The position numbers were made by a program, and so were the translations under genes. 64,000 bases of DNA from Cyanobacteriota bacterium. Its GTDB lineage: Bacteria; Cyanobacteriota; Cyanobacteriia; PCC-6307; Cyanobiaceae. The DNA is taken from the NCBI GenBank assembly GCA_046052125.1, contig JBJOMY010000001.1:288001-352000 (forward strand), read 5' to 3'. The notes under the pieces are model-generated. The model was not told the origin of the DNA and did not search any database. It saw only the letters and a list, made by a program, of their open reading frames with translations. Below, piece by piece: positions 2,912 to 21,091 of this stretch (positions are counted from its first letter, which is position 1; every line of letters begins with the position of its first letter).

Positions 2912-5900
2912 ATGAGACTAGTCAGAAATACCGGCCAAGACCGCGTCGCCGAGATAGTCCGGCGATCGCTTCAAAAGAGCGTGGGATTAAGCGTGGTCAG
3001 CGAGAGCCTATCCATATTTGGTTTTGCCGACCTCCTCGCTGAACTCAATAGCGTGGACTCTTGTCAGCTCATACTGCCACCAAAGGAAACGGATCTTGAA
3101 ATACTGGGAACCACAGCAGATAGACCTGCACGGAACCGCCTTCAGAGTCGCTGGCTAGCAAGTCGTCTCCTGCAATGGATAACAGAGAAAGGGAATATTC
3201 GACGTGCGGCAACAAAAGTTCCTCAAGGTGCAATCGTTGTTCGGGATGGCGACCTTCAGCCAGTGCAGGCATTGATCGGCGCTCTCTCCTTGAGCAGCCA
3301 CGGACTGGGCCTCACACCAGGCAATCCACTGAGCTTGATTCAGGCTTCAGAGAACAAAGAGGAAGCTCAGTTAATCGATAGTTGGCTGAATGCACAATGG
3401 AACTTGCTCGCAGAAGATGAACAAGCTAAGGCCTCACTGCTAGACCACCTACGTCCCATAACAGAGCACCGTGCGCCCATACTGATTTATGCGCTGATTC
3501 TTGAAAAGCTTTTTAGCGGTCAAGAAGGTCAGTTAGACGAAGATCAGATCGTTAATGCCGCGACAGGAATCCGCAAGACCGTCGTCTGGAACAAGCTTTA
3601 CAAATTCCAGCGTGATGGCGTGATCGGCGCAATCGACAAACTCAACAGGTTTGGAGGATGCATCATTGCCGATAGCGTTGGGCTCGGCAAGACATTCGAG
3701 GCACTGGCCATCATCAAGTACCAGGAATTGCGCAATGACCGCGTTTTGGTGCTCTGCCCTAAGCGACTTCGCGACAACTGGACGCTCTACACAGCCAACG
3801 ATCGTCGGAATGTCCTTGCTGCGGATCGCTTCAACTATGACGTTTTGAACCACACGGACCTCTCACGCGATGCTGGGCTCTCGGGCGATATTGACCTTGC
3901 CCATGTGAACTGGGGCAATTACGACCTCGTCGTCATCGACGAATCACATAACTTCCGAAACAAGAAGACGCCCCAAGCGGAAGGTGAGACCCGCTACGAC
4001 CGGTTGATGCGCAAGATCATTCACGAGGGGGTGAAGACACGGGTGCTCATGTTGTCTGCTACCCCGGTTAACAATCGCCTTGCTGATCTGCGCAACCAAA
4101 TTTCATTCGCGACGGAAGGTGACGACAGAGCCCTGATCGACCATGGCATCAACAGCATCGACGCCACCACTCGCTTAGCGCAGAAGCAATTCAACCGTTG
4201 GCTCGATCTGGAGGAGGCGGACCGTACGCCGTCTCTTTTGGTCGAGATGCTGGGCTTCGACTACTTCACGCTGCTTGACCATCTAACGATCGCGAGATCC
4301 AGGCGCCACATCGAGAAGTACTACGGCACTGCCGAAACCGGCCGTTTCCCCGACCGACTCAAGCCAATCAATATCAAGGCAGATGTGGACAGTGCAGGGG
4401 CTTTCCCGCCCATTGCCGACATCAATCGAGAGATCCGCCGATTGAACCTGGCTTCCTATGCACCATTGCGCTATGTGCTCCCACACAAGCAGGCGGCCTA
4501 TGACCGCAAGTACAGCACCGAGGTCAAGGGCGGGAGCGGGTTCTTTCGCCAGGCAGACCGCGAGGAAAGCCTGATCCATCTTCTGCGCGTCAACGTTCTC
4601 AAGCGAATGGAGAGCGCTGTTTCCTCCTTTGCGCTGACGTTGCAACGCCAGCTCTCTGACGTAGAAGCCACTCTCGCTCGCATCGAGGCACAAGCTGATG
4701 AGCTCGAGGAAGTTGATATCGAGAATGTGGACCTTGACGATCCAACTTTTGAGAGCCTTCTCGTGGGCCGCAAGATCAAGGTCCTGCTAAAGGATGTCGA
4801 TCTTGTTCGTTGGAAGCAGGACCTGAGCGAAGACCGCGACAGGCTGGTCAAGCTTGTCGCAGCTGCCCAAGACGTTGAGCCAGAGCGGGACGCCAAGCTC
4901 CAGGCCTTGCGCGAGCTGATTGCTCAAAAATGCCAACAGCCAATCAATCCCGGCAACCGCAAGCTGATTGTCTTCACAGCGTTTGCCGATACCGCCAGGT
5001 ATCTCTACGAGCAGCTTGCTCCGTGGGCGAACAAGACGCTTAGTCTCCATGCGGCATTGGTCACAGGCACCGGTAGCAACCAAGCCACGTTGCCGCTTCT
5101 GCGAAAGGACCTGGCGTCGATCCTGTCTGCTTTTGCGCCACGCGCAAAGGAACGGCCTGCGGATCTTGCGAGCGAGGGTGAACTGGAACTGCTCATCGCC
5201 ACCGACTGCATCTCTGAGGGGCAGAACCTGCAGGACTGCGATTGGCTGATCAACTACGACATCCATTGGAATCCAGTACGGATCATCCAGCGTTTCGGTC
5301 GTATCGACCGCCTTGGCTCACCAAACGAGCGGATTCAGCTGGTCAACTTCTGGCCAAACATGGAACTTGAGGAATACATCAACTTGGAACAGCGCGTCAG
5401 CGGGCGCATGGTCTTGCTCGACATCTCCGCCACAGGCGAGGAGAACCTGATCGAGCAGCAGTCGGGCAACCCGATGAATGACCTTGAGTACCGGCGTAAG
5501 CAGCTCCTGAAGCTCCAAGACGCGGTCATCGATCTCGAGGACCTCTCTACTGGCGTTTCCATCGCCGACCTGACGCTGAGCGACTTCCGCATCGACCTCG
5601 CTGAGTACAGGCGGGCACACCCCGAGGCGCTGGACTCGTTACAGCTGGGCACGATGGCTGTCACGACAACGGCTGAGGCCGATCTTCCCCCCGGCATCAT
5701 CTTCTGTCTTCGTTCGGAGAGCGAGGCTGCCAAGCAGGCGTTCGAGCCTGGATACCCCATGGCACCCCATTACCTCGTGCATATGGGCGATGACGGTGCC
5801 GTGCTGCTGCCCTTTACCCAAACCAAACGCATCCTTGACCGGCTGAAGCGTCTATGCGGGGGACGGGACCAACCCGACCAAGCGGCTTGTGCTCGCTTTG

Positions 5901-6109
5901 ACAAAGCCTCGAAGCAAGGCGCGGACATGCGTCACGCGCAGCGCTTGCTGGCAGCAGCAGTGGGTTCCGTTGTCGGCAAGACGGAGCAACGTGCCGTCGC
6001 CAGCTTGTTCGCCCCGGGTGGCACGCACATATTGGCTGGCGAGTTTGCCGGGATCGATGACTTTGAGGTGATTGCCTTCCTCGTCATCCTTCCGGAGGCG
6101 GCGCAATGA
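2912..6109 (+). CDS. SNF2-family (SF2) helicase associated with type III R-M
   Basis: ADSVGLGKT (Walker A), VIDESHN (Walker B), LSATP, TDCISEGQNLQ, QRFGRIDR. Confidence 0.9.
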   Translation: MRLVRNTGQDRVAEIVRRSLQKSVGLSVVSESLSIFGFADLLAELNSVDSCQLILPPKETDLEILGTTADRPARNRLQSRWLASRLLQWITEKGNIRRAATKVPQGAIVVRDGDLQPVQALIGALSLSSHGLGLTPGNPLSLIQASENKEEAQLIDSWLNAQWNLLAEDEQAKASLLDHLRPITEHRAPILIYALILEKLFSGQEGQLDEDQIVNAATGIRKTVVWNKLYKFQRDGVIGAIDKLNRFGGCIIADSVGLGKTFEALAIIKYQELRNDRVLVLCPKRLRDNWTLYTANDRRNVLAADRFNYDVLNHTDLSRDAGLSGDIDLAHVNWGNYDLVVIDESHNFRNKKTPQAEGETRYDRLMRKIIHEGVKTRVLMLSATPVNNRLADLRNQISFATEGDDRALIDHGINSIDATTRLAQKQFNRWLDLEEADRTPSLLVEMLGFDYFTLLDHLTIARSRRHIEKYYGTAETGRFPDRLKPINIKADVDSAGAFPPIADINREIRRLNLASYAPLRYVLPHKQAAYDRKYSTEVKGGSGFFRQADREESLIHLLRVNVLKRMESAVSSFALTLQRQLSDVEATLARIEAQADELEEVDIENVDLDDPTFESLLVGRKIKVLLKDVDLVRWKQDLSEDRDRLVKLVAAAQDVEPERDAKLQALRELIAQKCQQPINPGNRKLIVFTAFADTARYLYEQLAPWANKTLSLHAALVTGTGSNQATLPLLRKDLASILSAFAPRAKERPADLASEGELELLIATDCISEGQNLQDCDWLINYDIHWNPVRIIQRFGRIDRLGSPNERIQLVNFWPNMELEEYINLEQRVSGRMVLLDISATGEENLIEQQSGNPMNDLEYRRKQLLKLQDAVIDLEDLSTGVSIADLTLSDFRIDLAEYRRAHPEALDSLQLGTMAVTTTAEADLPPGIIFCLRSESEAAKQAFEPGYPMAPHYLVHMGDDGAVLLPFTQTKRILDRLKRLCGGRDQPDQAACARFDKASKQGADMRHAQRLLAAAVGSVVGKTEQRAVASLFAPGGTHILAGEFAGIDDFEVIAFLVILPEAAQ

Positions 6110-6864
6110 ATGCCACAGACCTGATCGCCGCGTTAGATCTACCGGCCAACTCACGGGTGGACCGGCGCGTGCCCAAGACGTTGCTGTTGGAGCATGGAGC
6201 TCCCACGGCTTCGGACAAGCGCCGCATCAGGGATGGCATTGAAGAGGTGCAGTGGGTAGCGACGCTCAAGCCCACGACTATCGGTGTGCCTGCTTTCCGT
6301 GATGCAGCGCGCGAATACCCGGAGATTTCAGTTCTGACGGTGGCCTTGCGAGCGGGCGCCAAAGCCGAGAGGCTGTCAGAGCTGCTGCACCGTGCCGTGC
6401 CCTACCCGCTGTTCCTGCTCTTGGACGTGGGCACAGGGCTCACCCTCTCACTGGCCCACAAGCGCTGGTCGCAGGGCGAGGCGGGTGCCACTGTGCTGGA
6501 TGGAGACCTGGTTGCGGCGTCTGTAGCTCCGGCCAGCTCCACCCAGGTGACCACGTCGTTCCTCGAAGCGCTCTCGCTGAGCGCACAGCCGCGAGCTGAC
6601 CTGTTCAAGCTTTACCAGGGCTGGATCGATGCGGTGCTAGCCCTGCTTGCGGCTCAGCTAACAGGGCGCTTCAGCCTGCCAGGGTCGCTGGCACATGCCA
6701 ATGCCAGACGGGAGGCGTTGCGCGAATCCGCCCAGCTGGAGGCCGAGATCACCCGCCTGCGGGCTGCCGCTGCCAAGGAGAAGCAGGTGTCCCGCCGGGT
6801 AGAACTGAACATGGCACTGAAGCACGCAGAGGCGGCCCGAGCCTCCGCGCTGACACGCCTCTGA
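6106..6864 (+). CDS. DUF4391-like protein
   Basis: RRVPKTLL...LHRAVPYP...AHKR and C-terminal coiled coil KEKQVSRRVELN. ATGA overlap with the helicase; typical position before a type III Mod gene. Confidence 0.75.
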   Translation: MNATDLIAALDLPANSRVDRRVPKTLLLEHGAPTASDKRRIRDGIEEVQWVATLKPTTIGVPAFRDAAREYPEISVLTVALRAGAKAERLSELLHRAVPYPLFLLLDVGTGLTLSLAHKRWSQGEAGATVLDGDLVAASVAPASSTQVTTSFLEALSLSAQPRADLFKLYQGWIDAVLALLAAQLTGRFSLPGSLAHANARREALRESAQLEAEITRLRAAAAKEKQVSRRVELNMALKHAEAARASALTRL

Positions 6865-6877
6865 GGCCTAAGACACG

Positions 6878-8878
6878 ATGAAGAAACTGACTGCCGGCGA
6901 TCCCGAGACCATGAGCCCAGACCTGGTCGCGGCGAATCTCGAGCGGCTCAAGGCACAGTTTCCAGAACTGGTCACGGAAGGGCCGAATGGTTCTGCCGTG
7001 AATGTGGATGTCCTGAAGGCGCTGGTCGGCGATAAAACCGTGACGGATGCTGACGAGAAATACGGCCTCAACTGGCATGGAAAACGTCAGGCCCGGCAAC
7101 TGGCGCTCATGCCCTCGACTGGCACATTGCGTCCCTGCCCGGAAGAGAGCGTGGACTGGGACACCACGCAGAACCTGATGATCGAAGGGGACAACCTGGA
7201 GGTGCTCAAGCTCCTGCAGAAGAGCTACGCGGGAAAAGTTAAACTCATATATATTGACCCTCCATACAATACCGGCAATGATTTCGTCTACCCGGACGAC
7301 TATGTTGACTCAATAAAAAACTATCACGAGCTAACAGGCCAAGTCGAGGGCGGAGCAAGAGTATCAACAAATACAGAGGCGTCTGGCCGTTTCCATACTG
7401 AATGGCTAAACATGATGCTACCCAGACTTCAGCTTGCAAGCCAATTGCTGAGCAAAGACGAAGGGGTGCTCATGGTATCTATTGGCGACCACGAAGTTCA
7501 TCACACAAGACTGCTTATTGACACGGTACTTGGCATGGAGAACTTCATTGGAAGCTTTGTATGGCAAGGAGGCAGAAAGAATGATGCCAGGCTAATTTCC
7601 AATAGCCATGACTATATCCTGGTTTACGCAAAAAATCTTGCCGCTATCCGGAGCGCAGACTCTCGCTGGCGAGAGAAGAAAGATGGACTCGATCCCGTCT
7701 ATGAAAAAGTCGCGGAACTGCGCTTGCTACACGGGGAAGACTTTGCAGCCATGCACAGCGAGATGCTTCGATGGTTTCGGGAGCTTCCCGAAGGGCATCC
7801 TTCAAAGCCACACGCTCATTTTAATTATATTGATAGCAGAGGAGTCTTCTTTCCTGATAATCTTCGCAGCCCCAACCCAAGGCCAAATCTTGTTTTCGAC
7901 TGGAAAGGATACCAGCCACACCCGAATGGGTGGGCATACAGCAGAGAGAAGATGGAACGCCTCGATGCAGAAGACAGGCTTGTTTATCCAGCATCTAAAA
8001 CGCAAAGGGTTAAAATTAAGTCCTATCTTCATGAACACGAAGAGTGGGCTCCAGGGTCCGTCTTTTACAAGGACAGAAGAGCTGCTTCAAAAGCCCTGAC
8101 CAGCTTAATGGGGGAAGAAGTATTTAGCTATCCCAAGGACATTGATGTTCTTGCAAGGTTCATCTCCGCAATCACAAAAGATGGCGATATAGTGATGGAC
8201 TTCTTCGCGGGTTCGGGCGCGACGGGGCATGCTGTTATGAAGGCCGAATCGCAACGACCTCTTAAGAGACGCTATATACTTGTCCAGCTCCCTGAGCAGC
8301 TAGAAATCAGTAATAGCGAGCAAGAGAAGGCAGCAAGATTTTGCATTGATATCGGCAAGCCGTGCACCATTGCAGAGCTCACAAAAGAGGGGCTTCGCCG
8401 TGCAGGCCAGTCTGTTCAAGGTTACAACCCGCTGTTGGCAGGCGATCTTGGCTTTCGGGTCTTCAAACTCGATTCCAGCAACATCCGCGCATGGGAGCCA
8501 GATCCTAACAATCTTGACCAGACAGTCCTTGATTACACGAACCATATCAAGGATGGTCGCACCGAGCAGGACATTCTCTACGAACTGCTTCTCAAGCTGG
8601 GACTTGAGTTGTGCGTGCCGATCGAACAAAAAGACATTGCTGGCAAAACCGTGCACAGCATTGGCGGCGGTGTCCTGATGGCCTGCCTTGCGCCTGAGAT
8701 TGCAAGTGAAAATGTGGAGCATCTTGCACAAGGACTGGTGGCCTGGCATCAGGTCCTTGCTCCAGCAGGCGACACCACCTGTGTGTTTCGCGACAGCGCT
8801 TTTGCTGATGATGTGGCCAAAATCAATCTCGCAGCCATTTTGAATCAGCACGGTCTAATGAACGTGCGGAGCTTGTGA
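6878..8878 (+). CDS. mod: Type III restriction-modification methyltransferase subunit (beta-class N6-adenine MTase)
   Basis: IEGDNLEVLKLL, YIDPPYN (motif IV), DFFAGSGATGHA (motif I) and GFRVFKLDSSN, in beta-class motif order. Confidence 0.93.
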   Translation: MKKLTAGDPETMSPDLVAANLERLKAQFPELVTEGPNGSAVNVDVLKALVGDKTVTDADEKYGLNWHGKRQARQLALMPSTGTLRPCPEESVDWDTTQNLMIEGDNLEVLKLLQKSYAGKVKLIYIDPPYNTGNDFVYPDDYVDSIKNYHELTGQVEGGARVSTNTEASGRFHTEWLNMMLPRLQLASQLLSKDEGVLMVSIGDHEVHHTRLLIDTVLGMENFIGSFVWQGGRKNDARLISNSHDYILVYAKNLAAIRSADSRWREKKDGLDPVYEKVAELRLLHGEDFAAMHSEMLRWFRELPEGHPSKPHAHFNYIDSRGVFFPDNLRSPNPRPNLVFDWKGYQPHPNGWAYSREKMERLDAEDRLVYPASKTQRVKIKSYLHEHEEWAPGSVFYKDRRAASKALTSLMGEEVFSYPKDIDVLARFISAITKDGDIVMDFFAGSGATGHAVMKAESQRPLKRRYILVQLPEQLEISNSEQEKAARFCIDIGKPCTIAELTKEGLRRAGQSVQGYNPLLAGDLGFRVFKLDSSNIRAWEPDPNNLDQTVLDYTNHIKDGRTEQDILYELLLKLGLELCVPIEQKDIAGKTVHSIGGGVLMACLAPEIASENVEHLAQGLVAWHQVLAPAGDTTCVFRDSAFADDVAKINLAAILNQHGLMNVRSL

Positions 8879-8885
8879 CATCGCG

Positions 8886-11858
8886 ATGATGAAGCTCCAT
8901 TTCGAACCTGATCTCGACTATCAGCTCACAGCGATCGAATCTGTCTGTGATCTATTTCGTGGTCAGGAGACCTGCCGTACCGAATTTACCGTCACCAAGA
9001 GTGCACTTGGTGGGGCGTTCATACCCGGTCTTGAGAGTGATCTAGGCGTCGGCAACCGCCTGACGCTGCTTGAAGACGAGCTGCTCAAAAACCTCAGCGG
9101 CATCCAACTCCGTCATGGCCTACCACCTTCTGTTGAGCTCACCTCACGCGACTTCACTGTGGAGATGGAGACTGGGACCGGTAAAACCTACGTCTACTTG
9201 CGCACCATCTTCGAGCTGAATAAGCGCTATGGCTTCAACAAGTTTGTCATCGTGGTCCCTTCAGTGGCGATCAAAGAGGGGGTCTATAAATCACTGCAGA
9301 TCACTGAGCAGCACTTCAAGGGCCTCTACGCAGGAGTTCATTGCGACTACTTTCTCTACGACTCAAACAAGCTTGGCCAGGTTCGCAATTTCGCAACCAG
9401 CGCCAGCATCCAAATCATGGTGGTCACCGTTGGGGCTATCAATAAGAGGGACGTCAATAACCTCTACAAGGAGAGCGAAAAGACAGGTGGCGAAAAGCCG
9501 ATTGACTTGATCAAGGCAACAAGACCCATTGTGATTGTTGATGAGCCTCAGAGCGTCGATGGTGGCCTGCAAGGGAGTGGGAAAAGAGCGCTTGAGGCAA
9601 TGAGTCCACTTTGCACATTGCGCTACTCCGCCACCCATGTGGATCGCCATCACATGGTCTATCGCCTAGATGCGGTCGATGCCTATGAGAAGCGACTTGT
9701 CAAGCAAATCGAAGTGGCCTCAGCCACCGTAGAAGATGCTCACAACAAGCCCTATGTGCGGCTCTTGTCGGTGAAGAACCAGCGAGGAATGATTAGCGCT
9801 CAGGTTGAGCTTGATTTGCAGACAGCCACGGGTGGTGTTCGACGTCAGACAGTCACCGTGCAAGATGGTGACGATCTCGCGCAGACCACTGGTCGCACTA
9901 TCTATGCCAACTGCCGAATCGGAGAGATACGAGTCGCCAAAGGCGGTGAATATTTAGAACTACGCGTTCCCGGCGCGGACCAATATCTGCAGATCGGACA
10001 AGCCTGGGGCGATGTTGACTTGCTAGCTGTTCAACGTGAGATGATTCGCCGCACGATCCGTGAGCATCTCGACAAGGAAAAGCGGCTGCGTCCACAGGGC
10101 ATCAAAGTTCTCTCTCTCTTCTTCATTGATGAGGTGGCGAAATACCGCTCCTATGACAGTGAGGGTAATGCCGTTAAAGGCGACTACGCGCGCATCTTTG
10201 AAGAGGAGTATCGGCGTGCAGCGGCACTGCCTGACTACCACACACTGTTTCAAGAAGTTGATCTTTCGCATGCAGCCGAAGATGTCCACAACGGCTACTT
10301 CTCGATTGACAGGGCTGGGGGCTGGACAAATACCGCCGAAAACAATCAGACGAACCGTGACAACGCAGAACGCGCCTACAACCTGATCATGAAGGAGAAG
10401 GAGAAGTTGTTGTCATTGCAAACTCCTTTGAAATTCATTTTCTCGCACTCAGCCTTGAAAGAAGGCTGGGACAGTCCCAATGTGTTCCAAATCTGTACCC
10501 TGCGCGATATTTCAACTGAACGTGAGCGTCGACAAACCATTGGCCGTGGTCTCCGCCTGTGTGTAAACCAGCAAGGCGAGCGCCGCCGCGGTTTTGACGT
10601 CAATACCTTGACCGTCATTGCGATGGAGAGCTACGAGCAATTTGCTGAACGCTTGCAGAAGGAAATTGAAGAAGACACTGGCATTCGCTTTGGTGTCGTG
10701 GAATCTCATGAGTTCGCAAGCATCGCGGTCGTCAGTTCTGACGGCAGCATTGCTCCGCTGGGGGTTGAACAGTCCAGAGTTTTGTGGGATCACTTCAAGG
10801 CAGAAGGCCATCTGGATAACCGCGGCAAAGTTCAGGATTCGCTCAGGGATGCCCTGAAGAGCGGCTCACTCACCGTGCCTCAGCCATTCGAGGCGCAGCG
10901 TGACCAAATCACGGCCGTTCTCAAAAAGCTGGCAGGACGTCTTGAGATCAAGAATGCCGATGAGCGCCGTCAGGTGCGTACCCGACAGGCGGTGCTGCAC
11001 AGCCCTGAGTTCAAGGCGTTATGGGATCGCATCAAGCACAAGACCACCTACAGGGTGGAATTTGACAACGAACGGCTGATTGAGACCTGTATCCGTGCTG
11101 TGCAGGCAGCGCCGCCGATTCCGAAAACCCGCCTGCAATGGCGCAAGGCTGACCTCGCCATCGGACAGGCGGGTGTCGAGGCTATAGAGCGTGAGGGAGC
11201 AGCCACAGTGGTGCTTGACGAAAGAGACATCCAGCTTCCCGATCTACTCACAGATCTCCAGGACCGCACACAGCTCACCAGACGCAGCCTGCAGCGCATT
11301 CTGAGCGGCAGCCTGCGGCTCGATGATTTCAAGAGCAATCCGCAAGCCTTCATTGTGCTCACCGCCGAGGCGATCAATCGGTGCAAACGCCTTGTTGTAG
11401 TAGATGGGATTAAATATCAGCGCCTTGGCGATGAACACTATTACGCTCAGGAACTCTTCGAGAAAGAGGAGTTGACAGGCTATCTAAGAAATCTTCTGGA
11501 TACCACCAAGGCTGTCTATGAGCAGGTGGTTTACGACTCGGAGATTGAACGAAGCTTTGGAGACCAGCTCGAGAAGAACAGTGCGGTCAAGGTCTATGCG
11601 AAATTGCCAGACTGGTTCACTGTGCCGACACCGTTAGGCGGCTACAACCCAGATTGGGCCGTCCTCATTGAGAAGGACGGAACTGAGAGGCTCTATTTCG
11701 TGGTGGAAACAAAAAGCAGTCTTTTTACAGATGACCTGCGAGACAAGGAGCGAGCAAAGATTGAATGCGGCAAGGCTCACTTCAATGCTCTGAGACAGGG
11801 CGAAACATCCGCCACTTACTTGGTCGCGAGAACTCTTGAAGAAGTCCTTGGGGATTAG
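8886..11858 (+). CDS. res: Type III restriction endonuclease subunit
   Basis: EMETGTGKTYVY, IVDEPQ, LRYSAT, LKEGWDSPNVFQIC, QTIGRGLR, and C-terminal PD-(D/E)xK motif YNPDW...VVETK. Confidence 0.93.
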   Translation: MMKLHFEPDLDYQLTAIESVCDLFRGQETCRTEFTVTKSALGGAFIPGLESDLGVGNRLTLLEDELLKNLSGIQLRHGLPPSVELTSRDFTVEMETGTGKTYVYLRTIFELNKRYGFNKFVIVVPSVAIKEGVYKSLQITEQHFKGLYAGVHCDYFLYDSNKLGQVRNFATSASIQIMVVTVGAINKRDVNNLYKESEKTGGEKPIDLIKATRPIVIVDEPQSVDGGLQGSGKRALEAMSPLCTLRYSATHVDRHHMVYRLDAVDAYEKRLVKQIEVASATVEDAHNKPYVRLLSVKNQRGMISAQVELDLQTATGGVRRQTVTVQDGDDLAQTTGRTIYANCRIGEIRVAKGGEYLELRVPGADQYLQIGQAWGDVDLLAVQREMIRRTIREHLDKEKRLRPQGIKVLSLFFIDEVAKYRSYDSEGNAVKGDYARIFEEEYRRAAALPDYHTLFQEVDLSHAAEDVHNGYFSIDRAGGWTNTAENNQTNRDNAERAYNLIMKEKEKLLSLQTPLKFIFSHSALKEGWDSPNVFQICTLRDISTERERRQTIGRGLRLCVNQQGERRRGFDVNTLTVIAMESYEQFAERLQKEIEEDTGIRFGVVESHEFASIAVVSSDGSIAPLGVEQSRVLWDHFKAEGHLDNRGKVQDSLRDALKSGSLTVPQPFEAQRDQITAVLKKLAGRLEIKNADERRQVRTRQAVLHSPEFKALWDRIKHKTTYRVEFDNERLIETCIRAVQAAPPIPKTRLQWRKADLAIGQAGVEAIEREGAATVVLDERDIQLPDLLTDLQDRTQLTRRSLQRILSGSLRLDDFKSNPQAFIVLTAEAINRCKRLVVVDGIKYQRLGDEHYYAQELFEKEELTGYLRNLLDTTKAVYEQVVYDSEIERSFGDQLEKNSAVKVYAKLPDWFTVPTPLGGYNPDWAVLIEKDGTERLYFVVETKSSLFTDDLRDKERAKIECGKAHFNALRQGETSATYLVARTLEEVLGD

Positions 11859-12065
11859 CGCTTCTGGCCCTGGAGAGAAGGCTTGGCTTTATCCAAAGCA
11901 TTATACATCCCCTGCACTGGAGTCTTTTCAGTATGGTTCTTGAGCGCCACGGGGTTGAATCTCTACCTCATTCAGCACTCAGACATCTCAACCTCTGACA
12001 CCCAAATCAAAAACAAAGCAAAGAAAAAGCCCGTTTGTTCGACGACTAAATAGCGCGACCCCCGC

Positions 12066-12356
12066 TCAGCGCTCCTGCAGAACCACCCCAGACCTGAGCA
12101 CGGAGACACGATCCACCGCTAGGTCCTCCGCCGCTGGGTGACTGCGCCGGAGTTCCTGCAGCAGGAGCGACTCAAGCTGCTCTCCTTCCAGCCAGGCGGG
12201 GACCCATTGGGTTCGGCTCATGGACAGCCAAGCCGGCCACCGCTCGGTCACGGTGTCACCGGCGGTGGTTCCCGCCACCCAGACCGTGGCGGTCTCGCCC
12301 TGCTGCAGAACGCGGTAGTGCACCCTCAGCTTGTTGTGGGGAAGGGCTGAGTTCAT
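12066..12356 (-). CDS. Hypothetical protein
   Basis: ATG at 12356 (MNSALPHNKLRVHY) overlaps the stop of the Nif11-like gene (ATGA). Confidence 0.55.
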   Translation of the reverse strand: MNSALPHNKLRVHYRVLQQGETATVWVAGTTAGDTVTERWPAWLSMSRTQWVPAWLEGEQLESLLLQELRRSHPAAEDLAVDRVSVLRSGVVLQER

Positions 12357-12550
12357 CCCTGGGCCGCCTGCTCCTGTTCCCGCTGCTCCTCCTGCCACGC
12401 ACGCTGCAGATCGATCCGCGTGATCCGGTAACCGAGGCGCCGTGCCGCAAGGATCAGCTCCTTACGGGAGCGGCAGTGCTTGAGCGCCCGTTGGAGGGCG
12501 CTATCGGCCTCCACGTCGTCCACAAAACGCTCCAGCTCGGACCAGCTCAT
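12353..12550 (-). CDS. Nif11-like leader-domain protein
   Basis: MSWSELERFVDDVEADSALQRAL...LILAARRLGYRITRIDL matches the Nif11 pattern. ATG at 12550. Confidence 0.8.
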   Translation of the reverse strand: MSWSELERFVDDVEADSALQRALKHCRSRKELILAARRLGYRITRIDLQRAWQEEQREQEQAAQG

Positions 12551-12714
12551 CGGAGGGAAAGCCCTGGATCTCTCACCATGCCAAGGGTGTCTGAGCTGCG
12601 CCAGGTTCCGTGGATCACACTCCTCCAGACCCCGCGTCAGCACTGAGGAAACCGGCCGGAACACCGGCCGGCGGGAGGTTCAAAAGATCGAGCCGTGGTC
12701 CCTTTGTTCCCGGC

Positions 12715-13158
12715 TCAGTCCGCAGAGCTTGAACCATCCCAATTGGAGCTGTGCTTGATCACAGCGGTGCAGAAATTCAACAACTCCCGGGGGGTCATGT
12801 CGTGCTTGGCGTCATTGGTGCGCCAAGCGCAGATCACGAAGTCCGGTTCCGGTTGGTTGGTGCGGTGATCAATGGTGGGGAGCATCGCGTAGCGCTTCTT
12901 GTGCTCGCCTTTGCCCTCGGCGGCTTCACGATTGTCGTAAGTGCCGATCAGCTCCCACTCGAGCCACTCGCCGGTCCAGTGGTCGAACCCCTGGGAAGCC
13001 AGCACCGCTTCATGGATCGCCAGCCGGTACTGCTGCACATTGCCAACGCCGCCACGTTTCTGATCTCGCTTGGACAACGTCACCGCCTTGCGCTGCACCC
13101 AGCCGGGGTAGGTGGCTTTGGAGACGTCCGGCATCCAGTCAGGGGCGGGGGTGTTCAT
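12715..13158 (-). CDS. Putative HNH-like nuclease
   Basis: LPTIDH...FVICAWRTNDAKHDM resembles the DH...N..K beta-beta-alpha-Me motif. Confidence 0.55.
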   Translation of the reverse strand: MNTPAPDWMPDVSKATYPGWVQRKAVTLSKRDQKRGGVGNVQQYRLAIHEAVLASQGFDHWTGEWLEWELIGTYDNREAAEGKGEHKKRYAMLPTIDHRTNQPEPDFVICAWRTNDAKHDMTPRELLNFCTAVIKHSSNWDGSSSAD

Positions 13159-13200
13159 CGAGATGGGGTGCTCCGGAAGAAAGATCGTTTCACTGCGTGC

Positions 13201-13914
13201 TCAAGCCAGCCCCAACCCCTCAATCCCCTGCCAACCCAGATAGAGCCCGAGAGCAACGCCCACCAGACCTACCAGCAGATCGCCTTTGGCGAACAACCAC
13301 TGCTTCCCGCGCTCCAGGATCGCCAGCACGCGCTCAGGGCCGGCCAACACCAGAGCCAGCAGTGGGATTAGCAACAGGCTTGCGCTCACCAGGCTGAACA
13401 CGCCTGTGGCCAGGAGTTCGCTGGCAGTGCCAAGGCCTGACGCCAGCAACGTGCCGGCCGTCTTGGTGAACAAAAACAGCGCGTCGGGTCGCACCACCTC
13501 CAGGGCCGCACTGATCGCGAGGAGCAGCGGAAGCGGCATGGCGCAGAACTGATCGAGCTTGCGGGTCCAACCCGGTGGCTCTGCGCTGCCATCCCCTTTG
13601 TTGAGAAGTTCCTTCAGGCCCAGCCCCAACAGCACGCCGGCGGCCACCAGATCCAGGCCGGTGCGGTGGCTGCTGCCCTTGTCCATGCTCAGAAACAGCC
13701 CATGGCCCACGGTGGTGAGCAGCGTCACCGCAACAGCGGCGGTGATCAGCCAACCGGCCACAAACCAACCCCCGCGGTGCAGAGGCTTCGGCCCGAGCAG
13801 GATCAGCAGCAGCAGGCCGATGTGCAGCGGCGAGAGCCCAATCGCCAACCCAAAGGCGGCCAGCTCACCAAGCAGGGAACCAAGGCCCTGGCTTGCGGCC
13901 ACGGGATCAGCCAT
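13201..13914 (-). CDS. GAP/Sap-family (LysE-like) membrane protein
   Basis: FGLAIGLSPLHIGLLLLIL...GGWFVAGW, about 6 hydrophobic segments, PPGW motif. Confidence 0.7.
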   Translation of the reverse strand: MADPVAASQGLGSLLGELAAFGLAIGLSPLHIGLLLLILLGPKPLHRGGWFVAGWLITAAVAVTLLTTVGHGLFLSMDKGSSHRTGLDLVAAGVLLGLGLKELLNKGDGSAEPPGWTRKLDQFCAMPLPLLLAISAALEVVRPDALFLFTKTAGTLLASGLGTASELLATGVFSLVSASLLLIPLLALVLAGPERVLAILERGKQWLFAKGDLLVGLVGVALGLYLGWQGIEGLGLA

Positions 13915-14009
13915 GGGAAGGATCAGTGATGCAGTGGATCTTCCCCCCATGGACCGGAATCGGGAAGGTGTAGCGCTTGCGCATCAGCCCGATTCGAAGC
14001 TGCTGGACA

Positions 14010-17790: not shown

Positions 17791-18612
17791 TCAACCGAGC
17801 ATGCGCATTCGCACAAGTGAATCCCACAAACGCGTGGGCATGAGCCGCTGCACGAGCACCGCCTCAGATTCGCTGCCGCAGCGGTAGCGGGGATTGGGAT
17901 CGCTGGCCTGTAGAGCAGCTGCGATGGTGCGAGCCACCACCTCAGGCTCTGAGCCCCTGCGGAATCCATCGGCCCAGCCGGCGGCAACCCGCCGCATCAT
18001 CGAACCCCAAACAGGGTCGAGCCCTTCGCGCTGCATGGCATCAGCCGTAACGCCCTCAAAGCCGGTGCGGATCAAGCCGGGCTCCACCAGCACCACGTGA
18101 ACGCCGAACTGGTGCAGCTCCAGGCGCAGGGCATCACTGATCGCCTCCACGGCGTGCTTGCTCGCGCCATACCAACCGGCCCCGGGTGTCACGAAGCGGC
18201 CGGCGATGGAGGAGAGGTTCACGATGCAGCCGCGGCGCCGTTCGCGCATCGCCGGCAGCAGCAGCTGGGTGAGGCCCACCAGGCCGAACACATTCACTTC
18301 AAACATGGCTCGGGCCCGATCGAGAGCCATTGTTTCCACCGGGCCCACATCGCCATAGCCGGCGTTGTTCACCAACGCATCGAGCGCGCCGACGCGTTCG
18401 CTAATGGCATGAGCAAGCGCATCGCGTGAGCTCGGGTCGACCAAATCCAGGGGGAAGATCTCAGCGCCGCGGCTGCGCAGCGGCTCCATCGCTTCAACCC
18501 GGCGCGCTGCAGCCAACACGCGCCAGCCCTGATCGATCAGGCGATGGGCCGTGGCCAAGCCAATGCCGCTGGAGGCACCGGTGATCAACACACTGCGGCG
18601 GGCGTCAGCCAT
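17791..18612 (-). CDS. Short-chain dehydrogenase/reductase
   Basis: ITGASSGIG, NNAG, YGASK. Start at ATG 18612 (MADARRS). Confidence 0.9.
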   Translation of the reverse strand: MADARRSVLITGASSGIGLATAHRLIDQGWRVLAAARRVEAMEPLRSRGAEIFPLDLVDPSSRDALAHAISERVGALDALVNNAGYGDVGPVETMALDRARAMFEVNVFGLVGLTQLLLPAMRERRRGCIVNLSSIAGRFVTPGAGWYGASKHAVEAISDALRLELHQFGVHVVLVEPGLIRTGFEGVTADAMQREGLDPVWGSMMRRVAAGWADGFRRGSEPEVVARTIAAALQASDPNPRYRCGSESEAVLVQRLMPTRLWDSLVRMRMLG

Positions 18613-18696
18613 CGGATTCCAAGCGACGGTTGCACTGTGGCGGATGAAGACTGCAGCTAGGGTCAAAAACGAGGCAACCCCTGCGCGACAGAGCCT

Positions 18697-19509
18697 GTGA
18701 ACAGCAATCAGGGCTGTCTTCTGCTGGTGGGCCTGGTGGTGGGGTTGCCGATCCTGATGGCGCTCTGGCCGCTTGTGGTTGTGGTGGGCGTGTTGGGCCT
18801 GGTGGTGTGGGTCGTGCAGATCTACAGCCAACAAGTCACCGCGCTGGAATTGAAGAACTGGAATTCCAGGCACGGGCAGGCCATCTGCCGCTGGAAGAAC
18901 CAGCACGGTGTGATTCAGGAGCTAGTGGGCAGCCAACAGATCCTGGAACTGAAGGTGTCGCTGCTCGATCAAGACAGCGGCCGCGCCATGTTGGTCGACG
19001 AGCAGATCAAGCTGGCACCTGCGCCTGGAGCAGGGTTATGTTCGGCCCGAGACATCACAACACGCCTCGAGCGAACCGGCATTGAACTGATCGGCGAGCT
19101 TTCGGTGGAAGCCAAAGCGATGCGAACTGCCCTGCAGTGTGTTGAGGAAATTCTCTGGAGCAGCCATGCCCTCGAGGATTTGCAGCAAATGGGGCGAGAC
19201 GCAGAGCACACGATCACGATCGCGCCGGGAAATGAACTGCTGGAGCCAGCCATTCCACAGCTGCTGAAAGCCAAAGCGAATGTGGAACGTGAAATCGAGC
19301 TGATTCAGAACGCCGTTCGCGAGAGCAGCGCGATGTTGAACGACCTGGGGGAGTTTCTTTCCGTGCCTGCGAGCATCAGACCTGTACTCAACTTCGACCC
19401 CACAACGAGGCACCGGCCCGAGCGGCTGCAGGAATTACAAGCCTCGTTCGAGGAGGTGGTGCTACTGAATCAGGTGTATCGCGAGCTATCCGAAAACAAG
19501 CTGATCTGA
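18697..19509 (+). CDS. Hypothetical protein with N-terminal membrane anchor and helical C-terminus
   Basis: 270-aa ORF with a strongly hydrophobic N-terminus. Confidence 0.7.
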   Translation: MNSNQGCLLLVGLVVGLPILMALWPLVVVVGVLGLVVWVVQIYSQQVTALELKNWNSRHGQAICRWKNQHGVIQELVGSQQILELKVSLLDQDSGRAMLVDEQIKLAPAPGAGLCSARDITTRLERTGIELIGELSVEAKAMRTALQCVEEILWSSHALEDLQQMGRDAEHTITIAPGNELLEPAIPQLLKAKANVEREIELIQNAVRESSAMLNDLGEFLSVPASIRPVLNFDPTTRHRPERLQELQASFEEVVLLNQVYRELSENKLI

Positions 19510-19518
19510 AGCAGGCTC

Positions 19519-20304
19519 ATGACTATCTTGAAACGTTGGATACTGATTCTTTTGGGGGTTGCAGGCGCCAGCAGCCTTGCCCTCATGGCGGTCTTTCCAG
19601 GGCCTAGAAGCATGATCGCGTTCACTCTGCTTACAGGAATTGGACGCGACCAGTTCCAAGCCATCATCGACGAACTGGAAAACAATGCTATTCAGAACAA
19701 GGAACCGACGAAGCATCAACGCGAATTCTTAGAACACTTTTACTGGACCCTCGCCGAAGGAGGAAAGCTGAGTGGCTTCGCACGACAGTCTGGCGAGCTG
19801 ATGAGCCACTACCTCAACAGAAGCGGCGTTGATTTCAAGCTCAACAGAACGATATTTACCGACAATTCCAACGTGATGCTTCAGGCCCACCTGATCAAGG
19901 GAAAGATTAGTGCTGCGCAGTGCCCCAATAATCAGGTGTTCAAAACAGATGAGTTCTACATGCCACACCCGTCCAGCCCCGACAGCGTATTTGGCCTGTA
20001 TTACGGCACATTGGAGGCACGCACCCATCGAGCAGGCTCTGATTGCGAAATCCACTGGAGAGCAGAAGTTCCCTGGATCTGGCCCAGTTACACAGACATC
20101 ACGAAGAAAACAGGAACACCCCATGGCGAGAGCTTCCCACTTCCGAGCCTTCGCTCCATCCTACTAGGAATCGACCATTCTCTCTATGTCGACAACGGCC
20201 TTGGTCGCTATATTGAAGACCACGGACTAGCAAAAAGATTTGTCGCATATGGCGAATGGCATGACAAGGAAAGCCTCCAGGAACTGCCACAGCCTGGCAA
20301 CTAA
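19519..20304 (+). CDS. Hypothetical protein with N-terminal signal/anchor
   Basis: 261-aa ORF 9 nt after the upstream stop, with hydrophobic N-terminus and A/T-richer codons. Confidence 0.7.
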   Translation: MTILKRWILILLGVAGASSLALMAVFPGPRSMIAFTLLTGIGRDQFQAIIDELENNAIQNKEPTKHQREFLEHFYWTLAEGGKLSGFARQSGELMSHYLNRSGVDFKLNRTIFTDNSNVMLQAHLIKGKISAAQCPNNQVFKTDEFYMPHPSSPDSVFGLYYGTLEARTHRAGSDCEIHWRAEVPWIWPSYTDITKKTGTPHGESFPLPSLRSILLGIDHSLYVDNGLGRYIEDHGLAKRFVAYGEWHDKESLQELPQPGN

Positions 20305-21091
20305 GCAGCCAGCGCACGATGAAAGCTACTGGGGCAAGCACCTGAAAACGCTCCTCAGCCGCATCAACCGACCCTATCCCAAAACACAATTTCCCGAATC
20401 TTTAAGCATTCTCCAGAAAAGACGCCTTGGCTGCTCCATCGCGATATTTCAAGCTGGAGAAGCTGGGGAGGGACGCCTAGCACGAGAAATCAACGGATTC
20501 AAGACTCCCTACATCGACGAGACCTATCGAGAGGCGTGTCGACTCTTTGTTGCGGAAGAAGGAAGACATGGAAGGATTCTTGATGACATGCTCAAGGAAT
20601 TAGATACGACGAGAAAGCGTGACAGCCGAACAGAACATTTATTTATCCATGCCAGGAGGCTTGCTGGCATTCGCATCAAGCTTCTTGTTCTACTTCTAGC
20701 GGAACTGGTGGGATTTTCTTACTATTCGGCACTCGTCAATCTACTGGATGAGTGCCCAGCGAAAGGCGCCTTATCCGAGATACGGGACGACGAGCACGAC
20801 CATTTGCGATTTCATCTGGACTTTTTTAGGTGCATGAGCAGGCACAGCGGCATAGCCGGTGCGCTTAGCGCGCTTCTTTGCTTAGTCATTGGATTGAGCA
20901 GCTTTGCTTTAGTTGCAGCGGAACATCGAGCAGCACTGGCCTGTATGGGTGGTAATGCGTGGGGTTTTGCTTTAGAAGGCTGGCGGCGCGTAGTCTCCTT
21001 AAGCTTTTTAATTCTCCCAATATCAAGCACTCATTCCATGGCTGGCGAGAAATGGTTGGAGTCCATTCAGACATCCAACACCAACCCTTAA
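20240..21091 (+). CDS. Ferritin-like (di-iron carboxylate) domain protein
   Basis: FQAGEAG, LFVAEEGRHG, AELVGFSYY and IRDDEHDHLRFH give an E...ExxH...E...ExxH layout. Start uncertain (20240/20249/20261). Confidence 0.7.
   Translation: MSHMANGMTRKASRNCHSLATKQPAHDESYWGKHLKTLLSRINRPYPKTQFPESLSILQKRRLGCSIAIFQAGEAGEGRLAREINGFKTPYIDETYREACRLFVAEEGRHGRILDDMLKELDTTRKRDSRTEHLFIHARRLAGIRIKLLVLLLAELVGFSYYSALVNLLDECPAKGALSEIRDDEHDHLRFHLDFFRCMSRHSGIAGALSALLCLVIGLSSFALVAAEHRAALACMGGNAWGFALEGWRRVVSLSFLILPISSTHSMAGEKWLESIQTSNTNP

Follow-up and report, generated by a model that had tools for sequence, protein, structure and literature searches.

A candidate composite Type III restriction-modification system with a nuclease-dead SNF2 motor and a DUF4391 protein in a cyanobacterial genome

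Textbooks present Type III restriction-modification (R-M) enzymes as the standard example of diffusion-based communication between distant DNA sites, achieved with only two subunits. What, then, are a SNF2-family ATPase and a DUF4391 protein doing directly upstream of a Type III methyltransferase (Mod) and restriction subunit (Res)? This arrangement, referred to here as the cassette, lies in a stretch of 64,000 nucleotides from a Cyanobacteriota genome (GenBank assembly GCA_046052125.1, contig JBJOMY010000001.1, positions 288,001 to 352,000, forward strand), which is called the window. The cassette adds a second motor, of a different family, to a Type III enzyme. From sequence comparison, its four genes appear to form one composite Type III R-M system, the action of Mod-Res being assigned by family membership. 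That the SNF2 protein is a nuclease-dead motor, docked via DUF4391 and accessory to Mod-Res, is an interpretation we consider slightly more probable than improbable. A robust conclusion is that a single evolutionary event united a Type III system with the motor half of an AchA6III-type pair, after which the motor lost its nuclease and the DUF4391 domain was released as a separate protein coupled to the motor. The cassette comprises the following features.

2912 to 6109, plus strand: SNF2-family ATPase, 1,065 aa (Pfam SNF2-rel_dom and Helicase_C)
2912 to 3400, plus strand: degenerate PLD-like (HKD) domain of the SNF2 protein, about residues 1 to 160, from alignment to the related protein of locus L104; borders approximate
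3614 to 5400, plus strand: SNF2 ATPase core, about residues 235 to 830, from motifs in the translation; borders approximate
5401 to 6106, plus strand: C-terminal domain of the SNF2 protein, about residues 830 to 1065, conserved in Type III-linked and sibling proteins
6106 to 6109, plus strand: overlap of the SNF2 stop and the DUF4391 start, ATGA
6106 to 6864, plus strand: DUF4391 protein, 252 aa (PF14335)
6878 to 8878, plus strand: Type III Mod, 666 aa (Pfam N6_N4_Mtase, 92.6 bits; PADLOC MTase_III, E 4.1e-201, full length)
7565 to 8440, plus strand: variable centre of Mod, about residues 230 to 520, presumed to recognise the target, from comparison of paralogues
8886 to 11858, plus strand: Type III Res, 990 aa (Pfam ResIII, DEAD and RE_endonuc; PADLOC REase_III, 1,343 bits)
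about 11508 to 11795, plus strand: C-terminal PD-(D/E)XK endonuclease domain of Res, residues 875 to 970

The four open reading frames (ORFs) were located exactly where a preliminary description of the locus had placed them, as were the ATGA overlap and the gaps of 13 nt between DUF4391 and Mod (GGCCTAAGACACG) and 7 nt between Mod and Res (CATCGCG). No cargo genes lie between the core genes. The same description had called all motifs intact, and for the two ATPases, the methylase and the Res nuclease they are: GLGKT, DESH, SATP and QRFGRIDR were read in the SNF2 translation, DPPY and FAGSG in Mod, and TGTGKT, VDEPQ and, in the endonuclease domain, PD...ETK in Res, which we take to be the characteristic motifs of these families. 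The PLD-like N-terminal domain of the SNF2 protein is different, in that its catalytic residues are replaced. This dead domain and a second copy of the cassette in the genome, both described below, go beyond the earlier observations.

Relatives of DUF4391 formed 1,336 representative clusters at E up to 0.001 in a library reduced to 50% identity, and 511 stretches of one-genome-per-species contigs encoded such a relative. Gene order in the 80 best-scoring of these stretches (L019 to L098), which by their record titles come from many phyla, was scored by tblastn with the window proteins as queries. A SNF2 gene was found upstream on the same strand in 48 of the 49 loci having at least 7 kb of upstream sequence, and Mod followed by Res was found downstream of DUF4391 in every one of the 43 loci having at least 9.9 kb downstream. 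All four genes stood in order in 32 of the 33 loci with both long flanks, the outcome of a co-occurrence check that the preliminary description had proposed; the sole exception (L030) is without the SNF2 gene. The same order was present in four low-GC genomes whose DUF4391 is 15 to 18% identical (L099 to L102), in eight genomes of another phylum (Res about 38 to 54% identical), and on an IncFIB plasmid of E. coli. The occurrence of the SNF2-DUF4391-Mod-Res order in many phyla is not a matter of chance.

The junctions were similarly conserved in cargo-free loci. The SNF2 stop overlapped the DUF4391 start in 36 of 46 (median distance, -4), the gap between DUF4391 and Mod measured 0 to 30 nt in 33 of 38, and that between Mod and Res was 0 to 30 nt in 16 of 19. 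Pairwise identities across 37 complete loci were correlated for SNF2-DUF4391 (0.75), DUF4391-Res (0.66), SNF2-Res (0.59), and Res-Mod (0.50). Conserved order across phyla, gene overlap and co-divergence all bear out the proposal that SNF2 and DUF4391 are dedicated companions of Mod-Res. In one Chlorobiaceae locus (L071:10001-10576), a stop was observed within the first 192 codons of DUF4391, where a pseudogene or a sequencing error is possible.

The origin of the motor is best seen from its N-terminal region. The best PADLOC model for the window SNF2 protein was C3a139 "HKD+Snf2" (E 2.7e-111), with the DrmD models far behind, and the core motif columns were invariant in a 34-sequence alignment. 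No Pfam family was detected in residues 1 to 240, even at E up to 10. The SNF2 protein of L104 carries Pfam PLDc_2, shares its best PADLOC model with the window protein, and aligns with it at 41% identity over 1,103 columns, from the N to the C terminus. In the PLD region, L104 reads LHGK...GSSN and the window protein PQGA...GALS, such that HxK is changed to QGA and GSxN to GALS. Both motifs were replaced in 55 of 55 alignable close Type III-linked SNF2 proteins, with Gln for His and no Lys, one further close row (L024) being unaligned in the PLD region. Four distant Type III-linked SNF2 proteins also were without HxK, while L104 and L105 retain it.

In this sibling arrangement (L103 to L105), to which weak DUF4391 matches within very long ORFs had pointed, a PLDc_2-SNF2 gene is followed by a gene for an Eco57I/MmeI-like methyltransferase of 1,150 to 1,300 aa. 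By architecture, L103 to L105 and L116 to L195 were matched to AchA6III, which Blow et al. (2016, PMC4752239) describe as an MmeI-like methyltransferase with target-recognition domain (TRD) but without the PD-ExK motif, beside a fused PLD endonuclease/translocase. The sibling sample was enlarged with 80 metagenome loci found via the sibling methyltransferase. An upstream SNF2 match on the same strand was present in 73 of these 80; of the remaining seven, six have less than 750 nt of upstream sequence and one (L170) has 6 kb. Matches to the window Mod, Res or standalone DUF4391 were absent from all 80, and every one of the 50 sibling SNF2 ORFs whose N terminus is complete retains HxK and GSSN. 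In a FastTree phylogeny of 109 SNF2 proteins, the 56 Type III-linked and 53 sibling rows were split by one branch (SH-like support, 91). As this one branch separates the dead from the live PLD proteins, loss of the PLD residues counts as a single event. By these comparisons, the true closest relative of the window SNF2 protein is the PLD-SNF2 nuclease-motor of AchA6III-type systems. The SNF2 frame of one locus (L202, G654:C2:235000-249000; ORF 9000-13955, minus strand) was observed to be 1,651 aa long, extending about 560 aa further at the N terminus.

The DUF4391 protein matched PF14335 with 239 bits (cut-off, 29.9) over model positions 1 to 230 of 232. Classification with PADLOC, also proposed earlier, identified Mod and Res as Type III and left DUF4391 unmatched, and NCBIfam gave no match to it either. 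DUF4391 had been described as a coiled-coil adaptor. Its AlphaFold2 model (pLDDT 95.7, pTM 0.91) does contain a helical hairpin at residues 193 to 252, but the larger part of the protein, residues 1 to 190, is an alpha/beta domain. A Foldseek comparison with the PDB returned nothing at E up to 0.001 (best, 3.9e-2), and with VIA-align the full model matched solely generic helical hairpins over residues 193 to 252 (Z up to 9.4). For the N-terminal domain the best structural match was 2qx2_A, with Z 4.8 (root mean square deviation [rmsd] 4.1, 113 residues aligned), and none attained Z of 5 or more. Among the low-Z matches were nuclease domains, namely, an HsdR fragment (3h1t_A; Z 3.8, rmsd 4.0, 98 aligned), 9y1l_B (Z 3.4), BpuSI (3s1s_A; Z 3.2, rmsd 4.5, 117 aligned), and 3ijm_B (Z 3.0). 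These matches are compatible with a much-diverged nuclease-like fold of the modelled domain, a fit that proves nothing. A sequence search of the PDB with the family profile gave nothing below E 1.9, and the ESM Atlas gave no usable DUF4391 match.

A relationship was detected instead at the profile level. PF14335 matched residues 78 to 214 of the L103 methyltransferase with 38.2 bits, above the cut-off of 29.9. A search with the first 260 residues of that enzyme retrieved 472 proteins, and among the 120 listed, 69 combine PF14335 with Eco57I, N6_Mtase, MmeI_Mtase or TaqI_C labels. In a profile-profile comparison, standalone DUF4391 (49 sequences) was aligned to 23 methyltransferases with a probability of 68% (E 4.7e-5, 101 columns), pairing DUF4391 residues 78 to 178 with methylase residues of about 102 to 210. 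At this level of comparison, DUF4391 and the N-terminal domain found in the sibling MmeI-like methyltransferase are homologues. In true MmeI-type enzymes, according to Blow et al. (2016, PMC4752239), the same N-terminal region is the position of the PD-ExK nuclease domain. Residues E73, H95 and R96 of DUF4391 are invariant in close relatives and lost in distant members with the same gene context, which suggests a structural rather than a catalytic role and argues for an adaptor rather than an enzyme. At one sibling locus (L205, G519:C1:1541500-1555500; 4702-8737), a DUF4391-like ORF of 353 aa (23 bits) and an Eco57I-like methylase ORF of 1,053 aa lie in different frames with a 188-nt overlap. 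The fused gene may here be frameshifted or naturally divided, possibly as an intermediate towards standalone DUF4391.

Binding of DUF4391 to the motor was assessed by complex prediction against SNF2 residues 1 to 235 and 560 to 1065, each with its own alignment. The DUF4391-SNF2 complex score was 0.54 and the best of three controls was 0.00, the latter value also being that of the control in which SNF2 560 to 1065 was replaced. The runs agreed in at least 73% of contacts, and partner pLDDT was at least 80. For calibration, 116 of 157 solved complexes and 2 of 215 mismatched pairs passed the mark set on this score, and only 18 of those 157 solved complexes, along with both passing mismatches, scored at or below 0.60. 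Since gene overlap and co-conservation had made binding likely beforehand, the score was taken as mild support; the model thus lends weak support to DUF4391 being a partner of the SNF2 motor.

The dependence of the SNF2-DUF4391 module on Mod-Res was examined in 401 genomes of the phylum to which locus L078 belongs, which is not that of the window. DUF4391 was detected in 22 of the 401, one of which had been chosen for having it, a Res homologue (E up to 1e-20) in 45, and a SNF2 homologue (E up to 1e-60) in 24. Of the 22 DUF4391 genomes, 20 had a Res homologue and 19 a SNF2 homologue, the misses being cases with DUF4391 at contig ends or as fragments. Conversely, 25 genomes had a Res homologue without DUF4391. 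Nine such loci were examined, and in five (L107, L108, L110, L113 and L114) an intact Mod-Res pair with enough upstream sequence had neither SNF2 nor DUF4391; the pairs of L107 and L110 are flanked by housekeeping genes. The other four could not be judged, given a Mod remnant (L106), a split Mod (L111), or proximity to a contig edge (L109 and L112). The idea that the close two-gene relatives are decayed was rejected, as Mod is intact in L107 and L108. At L112 (G437:C47:1-8595), two Mod genes in tandem (629 and 628 aa), together with three small ORFs, were seen upstream of one Res, with the contig ending after the second Mod.

In a FastTree phylogeny of 72 Res proteins, the five two-gene rows were each placed beside four-gene rows, amounting to 5 changes among 61 four-gene rows. 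Combined with the single origin on the SNF2 tree, these changes point to repeated loss of SNF2-DUF4391 from four-gene ancestors, which is the simplest reading of the two trees. A standalone DUF4391 without Mod-Res was not seen among the loci with enough flank (43 of 43 have Mod-Res). The dependence is one-sided: the module is found with Mod-Res, and Mod-Res is also found alone.

A search with DUF4391 revealed a second intact cassette in the source genome, about 407 kb from that of the window and on the opposite strand.

4830 to 13656 of L003 (G000:C1:692000-711999), minus strand: second cassette, with the same four genes in the same order, all open

Its SNF2, DUF4391, Mod and Res ORFs encode 1,065, 251, 624 and 993 aa. 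Identity between the two copies was 85% for SNF2, 82% for DUF4391 and 87% for Res, compared with 54% for Mod, the Mod paralogues being near-identical at their ends and unalignable in the centre. The two cassettes most likely recognise different sites, and as the Mod centres differ, each of these presumed two specificities has its own SNF2-DUF4391. DUF4391 was absent from all 29 other genomes of the same family and above the cut-off in 7 of 401 genomes sampled from the window's phylum, the source genome included. With this patchy distribution, both copies look like horizontally acquired, strain-specific islands. The GC content is 0.51 to 0.56 for SNF2, Mod and Res, 0.65 for DUF4391, and 0.63 for the window; the cassette sits in a low-GC island. 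Occurrence in such an island, on plasmids and in scattered genomes marks the cassette as mobile.

The gene content was compared with known systems, beginning with those that contribute its parts. With classical Type III systems (EcoP15I and EcoP1I; Mod2Res), the window cassette shares a DPPY-type Mod with a variable centre, the adjacent Mod-Res order, and a Res with superfamily 2 ATPase and C-terminal PD-(D/E)XK endonuclease. It differs in its two extra upstream genes, for the dead-PLD SNF2 protein and DUF4391, and in its Res, which at 364 bits falls below the NCBIfam PRK15483 cut-off of 564 and hence represents a distinct Res sub-family. Type III enzymes typically hemi-methylate an asymmetric site and need ATP and unmethylated sites for cutting. 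Classical Type III cleavage is described in two reports (PMC3413136, PMC4490356) as requiring two inversely oriented sites and ATP-triggered diffusion. With the AchA6III-type arrangement, the cassette has in common a full-length SNF2 protein of the same family and a motor gene directly upstream of a DUF4391 or DUF4391-like frame. It departs from that type in four respects: the PLD catalytic residues are lost (55/55 versus 0/50 siblings), DUF4391 stands on its own and has an additional helical hairpin, a Type III Mod takes the place of the Eco57I/MmeI-like methyltransferase, and a Res nuclease-ATPase has joined the set.

The likeness to DISARM and Zorya that had been pointed out earlier did not survive comparison with the models of those systems and is confined to the shared SNF2 superfamily. 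Like class 1 DISARM, the cassette encodes a SNF2-superfamily ATPase with a DNA methyltransferase, and a PLD-type domain is part of the system. Unlike it, the window SNF2 protein scored 160 bits with the DrmD equivalog NF038317 (cut-off, 610) and 107 bits with NF038318 (cut-off, 950), its methylase is a Type III Mod, and Res is present; DrmA, DrmB (DUF1998) and DrmC were not found among the flanking ORFs scanned within about 3 kb on each side. For Zorya type I, ZorD (NF041790) gave 21.6 bits against a cut-off of 1,500, and ZorA, ZorB and ZorC were not given a separate search. The Hma or DUF499-centred "BREX-related" systems are characterised (PMC11232893, PMC12839542) by DUF3883/NOV_C, DUF1156 and DUF499 proteins. 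A SNF2 helicase with a nuclease domain, a methyltransferase, and an operon serving as a slot for inserted defence genes are common to Hma and the cassette. No DUF3883/NOV_C, DUF1156 or DUF499 was detected by Pfam in the four window proteins, however, and PADLOC HmaA matched the window SNF2 protein (E 1.5e-22) over the generic helicase part only. Judged by its sequences, the cassette belongs to none of DISARM, Zorya and Hma. Type I and Type ISP enzymes are translocating motors coupled to a methylase/TRD. Should the SNF2 protein translocate while tethered to Mod-Res, the cassette would resemble them by analogy in combining methylase/TRD recognition, a double-stranded-DNA translocase and a separate nuclease; the motor family, SNF2 rather than HsdR-type, and the subunit make-up differ.

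These observations can be assembled into the composite Type III system introduced above. Mod would mark host sites, and Mod-Res would cut unmarked incoming DNA. SNF2 and DUF4391 would be a second, accessory sub-complex, with its origin in the half of an AchA6III-type "Type IIG-like" system that supplied nuclease and motor. In the sibling, the PLD-nuclease/SNF2 motor works with an MmeI-like methyltransferase having a DUF4391-like N-terminal domain. In the Type III-linked lineage, the PLD nuclease was inactivated, presumably because Res now supplies the cut, and the DUF4391 domain became a separate protein, translationally coupled to the motor, and gained its C-terminal helical hairpin. DUF4391 may be an adaptor without catalytic activity, one that keeps hold of the SNF2 motor and links it to Mod-Res or to DNA marked by Mod. 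The ATP-driven translocase would then assist restriction, either by driving or extending long-range communication along DNA or by clearing bound proteins, which goes beyond what a diffusing Type III enzyme does by itself. The preliminary description had suggested that the pair might remove anti-restriction proteins, remodel protected phage DNA or act as a backup, and the present comparisons speak neither for nor against these roles.

Several points weigh against this interpretation. The contact of SNF2-DUF4391 with Mod or Res, and the action of the motor, are what we infer. With no convincing fold match, "adaptor" follows from the absence of conserved catalytic residues, and the homology of DUF4391 to the methylase domain amounts to a moderate profile score (68%) and Pfam matches over part of the domain. 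A complex score such as that for DUF4391 and SNF2 is more often wrong than right unless the pairing is likely beforehand. The 80-locus set, with DUF4391 52 to 67% identical to the query, samples mainly one sub-family. Co-divergence can reflect co-inheritance alone and is evidence of co-inheritance, not of contact. Both the SNF2 and the Res trees are unrooted FastTree reconstructions with long branches flagged, and the split between dead and live PLD domains is one ancient event rather than 105 independent observations. Finally, a helper is not the only role that agrees with the persistence of Mod-Res in the absence of the module; an independent effector agrees with it equally well.

A bolder version of the composite system, improbable in our estimate, would have SNF2-DUF4391 convert the diffusing Type III enzyme to motor-driven action, as in Type I/ISP complexes. 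As a relic of a Type IIG nuclease domain reused for docking, DUF4391 would clamp the nuclease-dead SNF2 translocase onto Mod-Res. The complex could then draw in DNA, overcome obstruction by bound proteins, and cut at a single site or at sites in the same orientation. If true, phages would lose the escape from Type III restriction that site orientation offers them, and the cassette would be a natural case of one restriction class rebuilt from the parts of another.

The persistence of Mod-Res without the module leads to a second interpretation, doubtful though not negligible, in which two effectors share one methyltransferase. SNF2-DUF4391 would be a Res-independent restriction arm with the methylation by Mod as its self mark; DUF4391, having arisen from a Type IIG nuclease-like domain, would recognise sites that lack methylation, and the dead motor would block replication or injection without cutting, as BREX does. 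The constant presence of Mod-Res beside SNF2-DUF4391 (43/43), together with the existence of Mod-Res alone, fits a dependence on the methylation mark only, and the lost nuclease of the motor and the membership of the sibling's DUF4391-like domain in a site-reading methyltransferase point the same way. However, no DNA- or methyl-reading fold was found for DUF4391. Such an arm would also be expected to occur as SNF2-DUF4391-Mod without Res, which was not seen among the 43 loci with enough downstream sequence, and the co-divergence of SNF2 with Res (r 0.59) is at least as strong as that of Res with Mod (r 0.50).

The mobility of the cassette allows another role for the motor. RapA is a SNF2 protein that recycles RNA polymerase, and by analogy SNF2-DUF4391 might strip or recycle Mod-Res stalled on host DNA, thereby limiting self-cutting after replication, entry into a new host or a change of specificity. 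We hold this to be rather unlikely. A cassette found in a low-GC island, on plasmids and in 0 of 29 same-family genomes would often have to be established in new hosts, the source genome has two copies with different Mod centres, and the motor is nuclease-dead, all of which would suit a housekeeping factor. Against this, classical Type III systems (EcoP15I and EcoP1I) manage without such a factor, and the ancestor of the motor was an attacking nuclease-motor. The window SNF2 protein scored 54 bits with the NCBIfam RapA model (cut-off, 576).

Least likely of the three alternatives, and very improbable, is that SNF2-DUF4391 is an autonomous two-gene defence system that landed beside Type III systems within defence islands. 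In its favour, unrelated defence genes do accumulate at all three junctions of these cassettes, and Mod-Res does exist without the pair. Against it, the cargo varies by locus whereas SNF2-DUF4391 does not and keeps its upstream position and order, which are retained even at 15 to 18% DUF4391 identity. Among loci with enough flank, none had the standalone pair without Mod-Res, and the loss of the motor's nuclease exactly in the Res-linked lineage would be hard to explain for an autonomous system.

If the motor is coupled to Mod-Res, as in the composite system that we favour, it would change what a Type III enzyme can do and which phages and plasmids are stopped. REBASE, PADLOC and DefenseFinder, in which just Mod and Res are recognised at present, would then have to give the cassette a class to itself. 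The cassette is common, with 511 stretches in one-genome-per-species contigs, 22 of 401 genomes in the L078 phylum, and E. coli plasmids. The contrast between a dead PLD with Res and standalone DUF4391 and a live PLD with a fused DUF4391-methylase is an evolutionary experiment on module exchange, and DUF4391 gains a first testable role. In a literature search whose scope excluded REBASE, supplementary tables and Makarova et al. (2011), no account naming or testing the four-gene cassette was found; the preliminary description likewise knew of no mechanistic one. Nor was a functional account of DUF4391/PF14335 found there, one use of "DUF4391" appearing to be a slip for DUF7941. New in the present data are the two-copy genome, the 55/50 partition of the PLD motifs with its single origin, the profile-level relationship between DUF4391 and the methylase N-terminal domain, the one-sided dependence on the Res tree, and the weakly supported DUF4391-SNF2 complex model.

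Minor features of the surroundings were also recorded. Directly before the window cassette (479-2757) are a Trypsin_2 peptidase gene (461 aa) and two small ORFs, which have no counterparts in other cassette loci; within about 3 kb on each side, the flanking ORFs include this trypsin-like peptidase, small ORFs without a family, SfLAP and others. A Trypsin_2 gene (278 aa) and a 210-aa ORF also occur as cargo between DUF4391 and Mod at L099:7989-9438, and the two Trypsin_2 genes have no similarity by tblastn at E up to 1e-4. The second copy, L003, is preceded by an HNH_2 gene (347 aa) that ends 7 nt before SNF2 and followed by a staphylococcal-nuclease/Excalibur gene on the other strand. No neighbour of either copy, including the HNH gene, recurred in other cassette loci. 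Downstream of the window cassette, at about 18500 to 20500, there is a second GC dip (0.54 to 0.60, compared with about 0.65 around it). No tRNA genes were found in window positions 1 to 22000, and simple scans gave no excess of promoter- or terminator-like sites inside the cassette. Among 50,697 phage records, one had a DUF4391 match: Erysipelothrix phage phi1605 (MF172979.1, 6457-7131; 23.5% identity), in a region annotated as "methyl-accepting chemotaxis protein" and "DEAD/DEAH box helicase-like protein" that looks like a mis-annotated cassette copy.

Insertions of cargo size (gaps of more than 300 nt) were found at all three junctions, in 15 of 74 loci between SNF2 and DUF4391, 15 of 70 between DUF4391 and Mod, and 32 of 57 between Mod and Res. 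By Pfam, the cargo comprised GmrSD, AlbA_2/HATPase_c_4 (Schlafen-like), AAA_14 with DUF4143, a superfamily 1 helicase with RNase_H_2, RhuM, AIG2/GGACT, YhcG, Fic, DarT with Macro, HepT, TIR, PLD and others. The cargo changes between loci and the four core genes are constant, the cassette being a slot for variable defence-type cargo. One protein (P0216, 1,419 aa), in which the superfamily 1 helicase with RNase_H_2 is joined to DUF4391, was considered as a Rosetta-stone fusion and rejected, as the helicase is separate cargo elsewhere; the fusion may be a read-through or a miscall. The helicase of this type is encoded separately, directly upstream of DUF4391, at L037:3441-6845 and L075:6568-9993.

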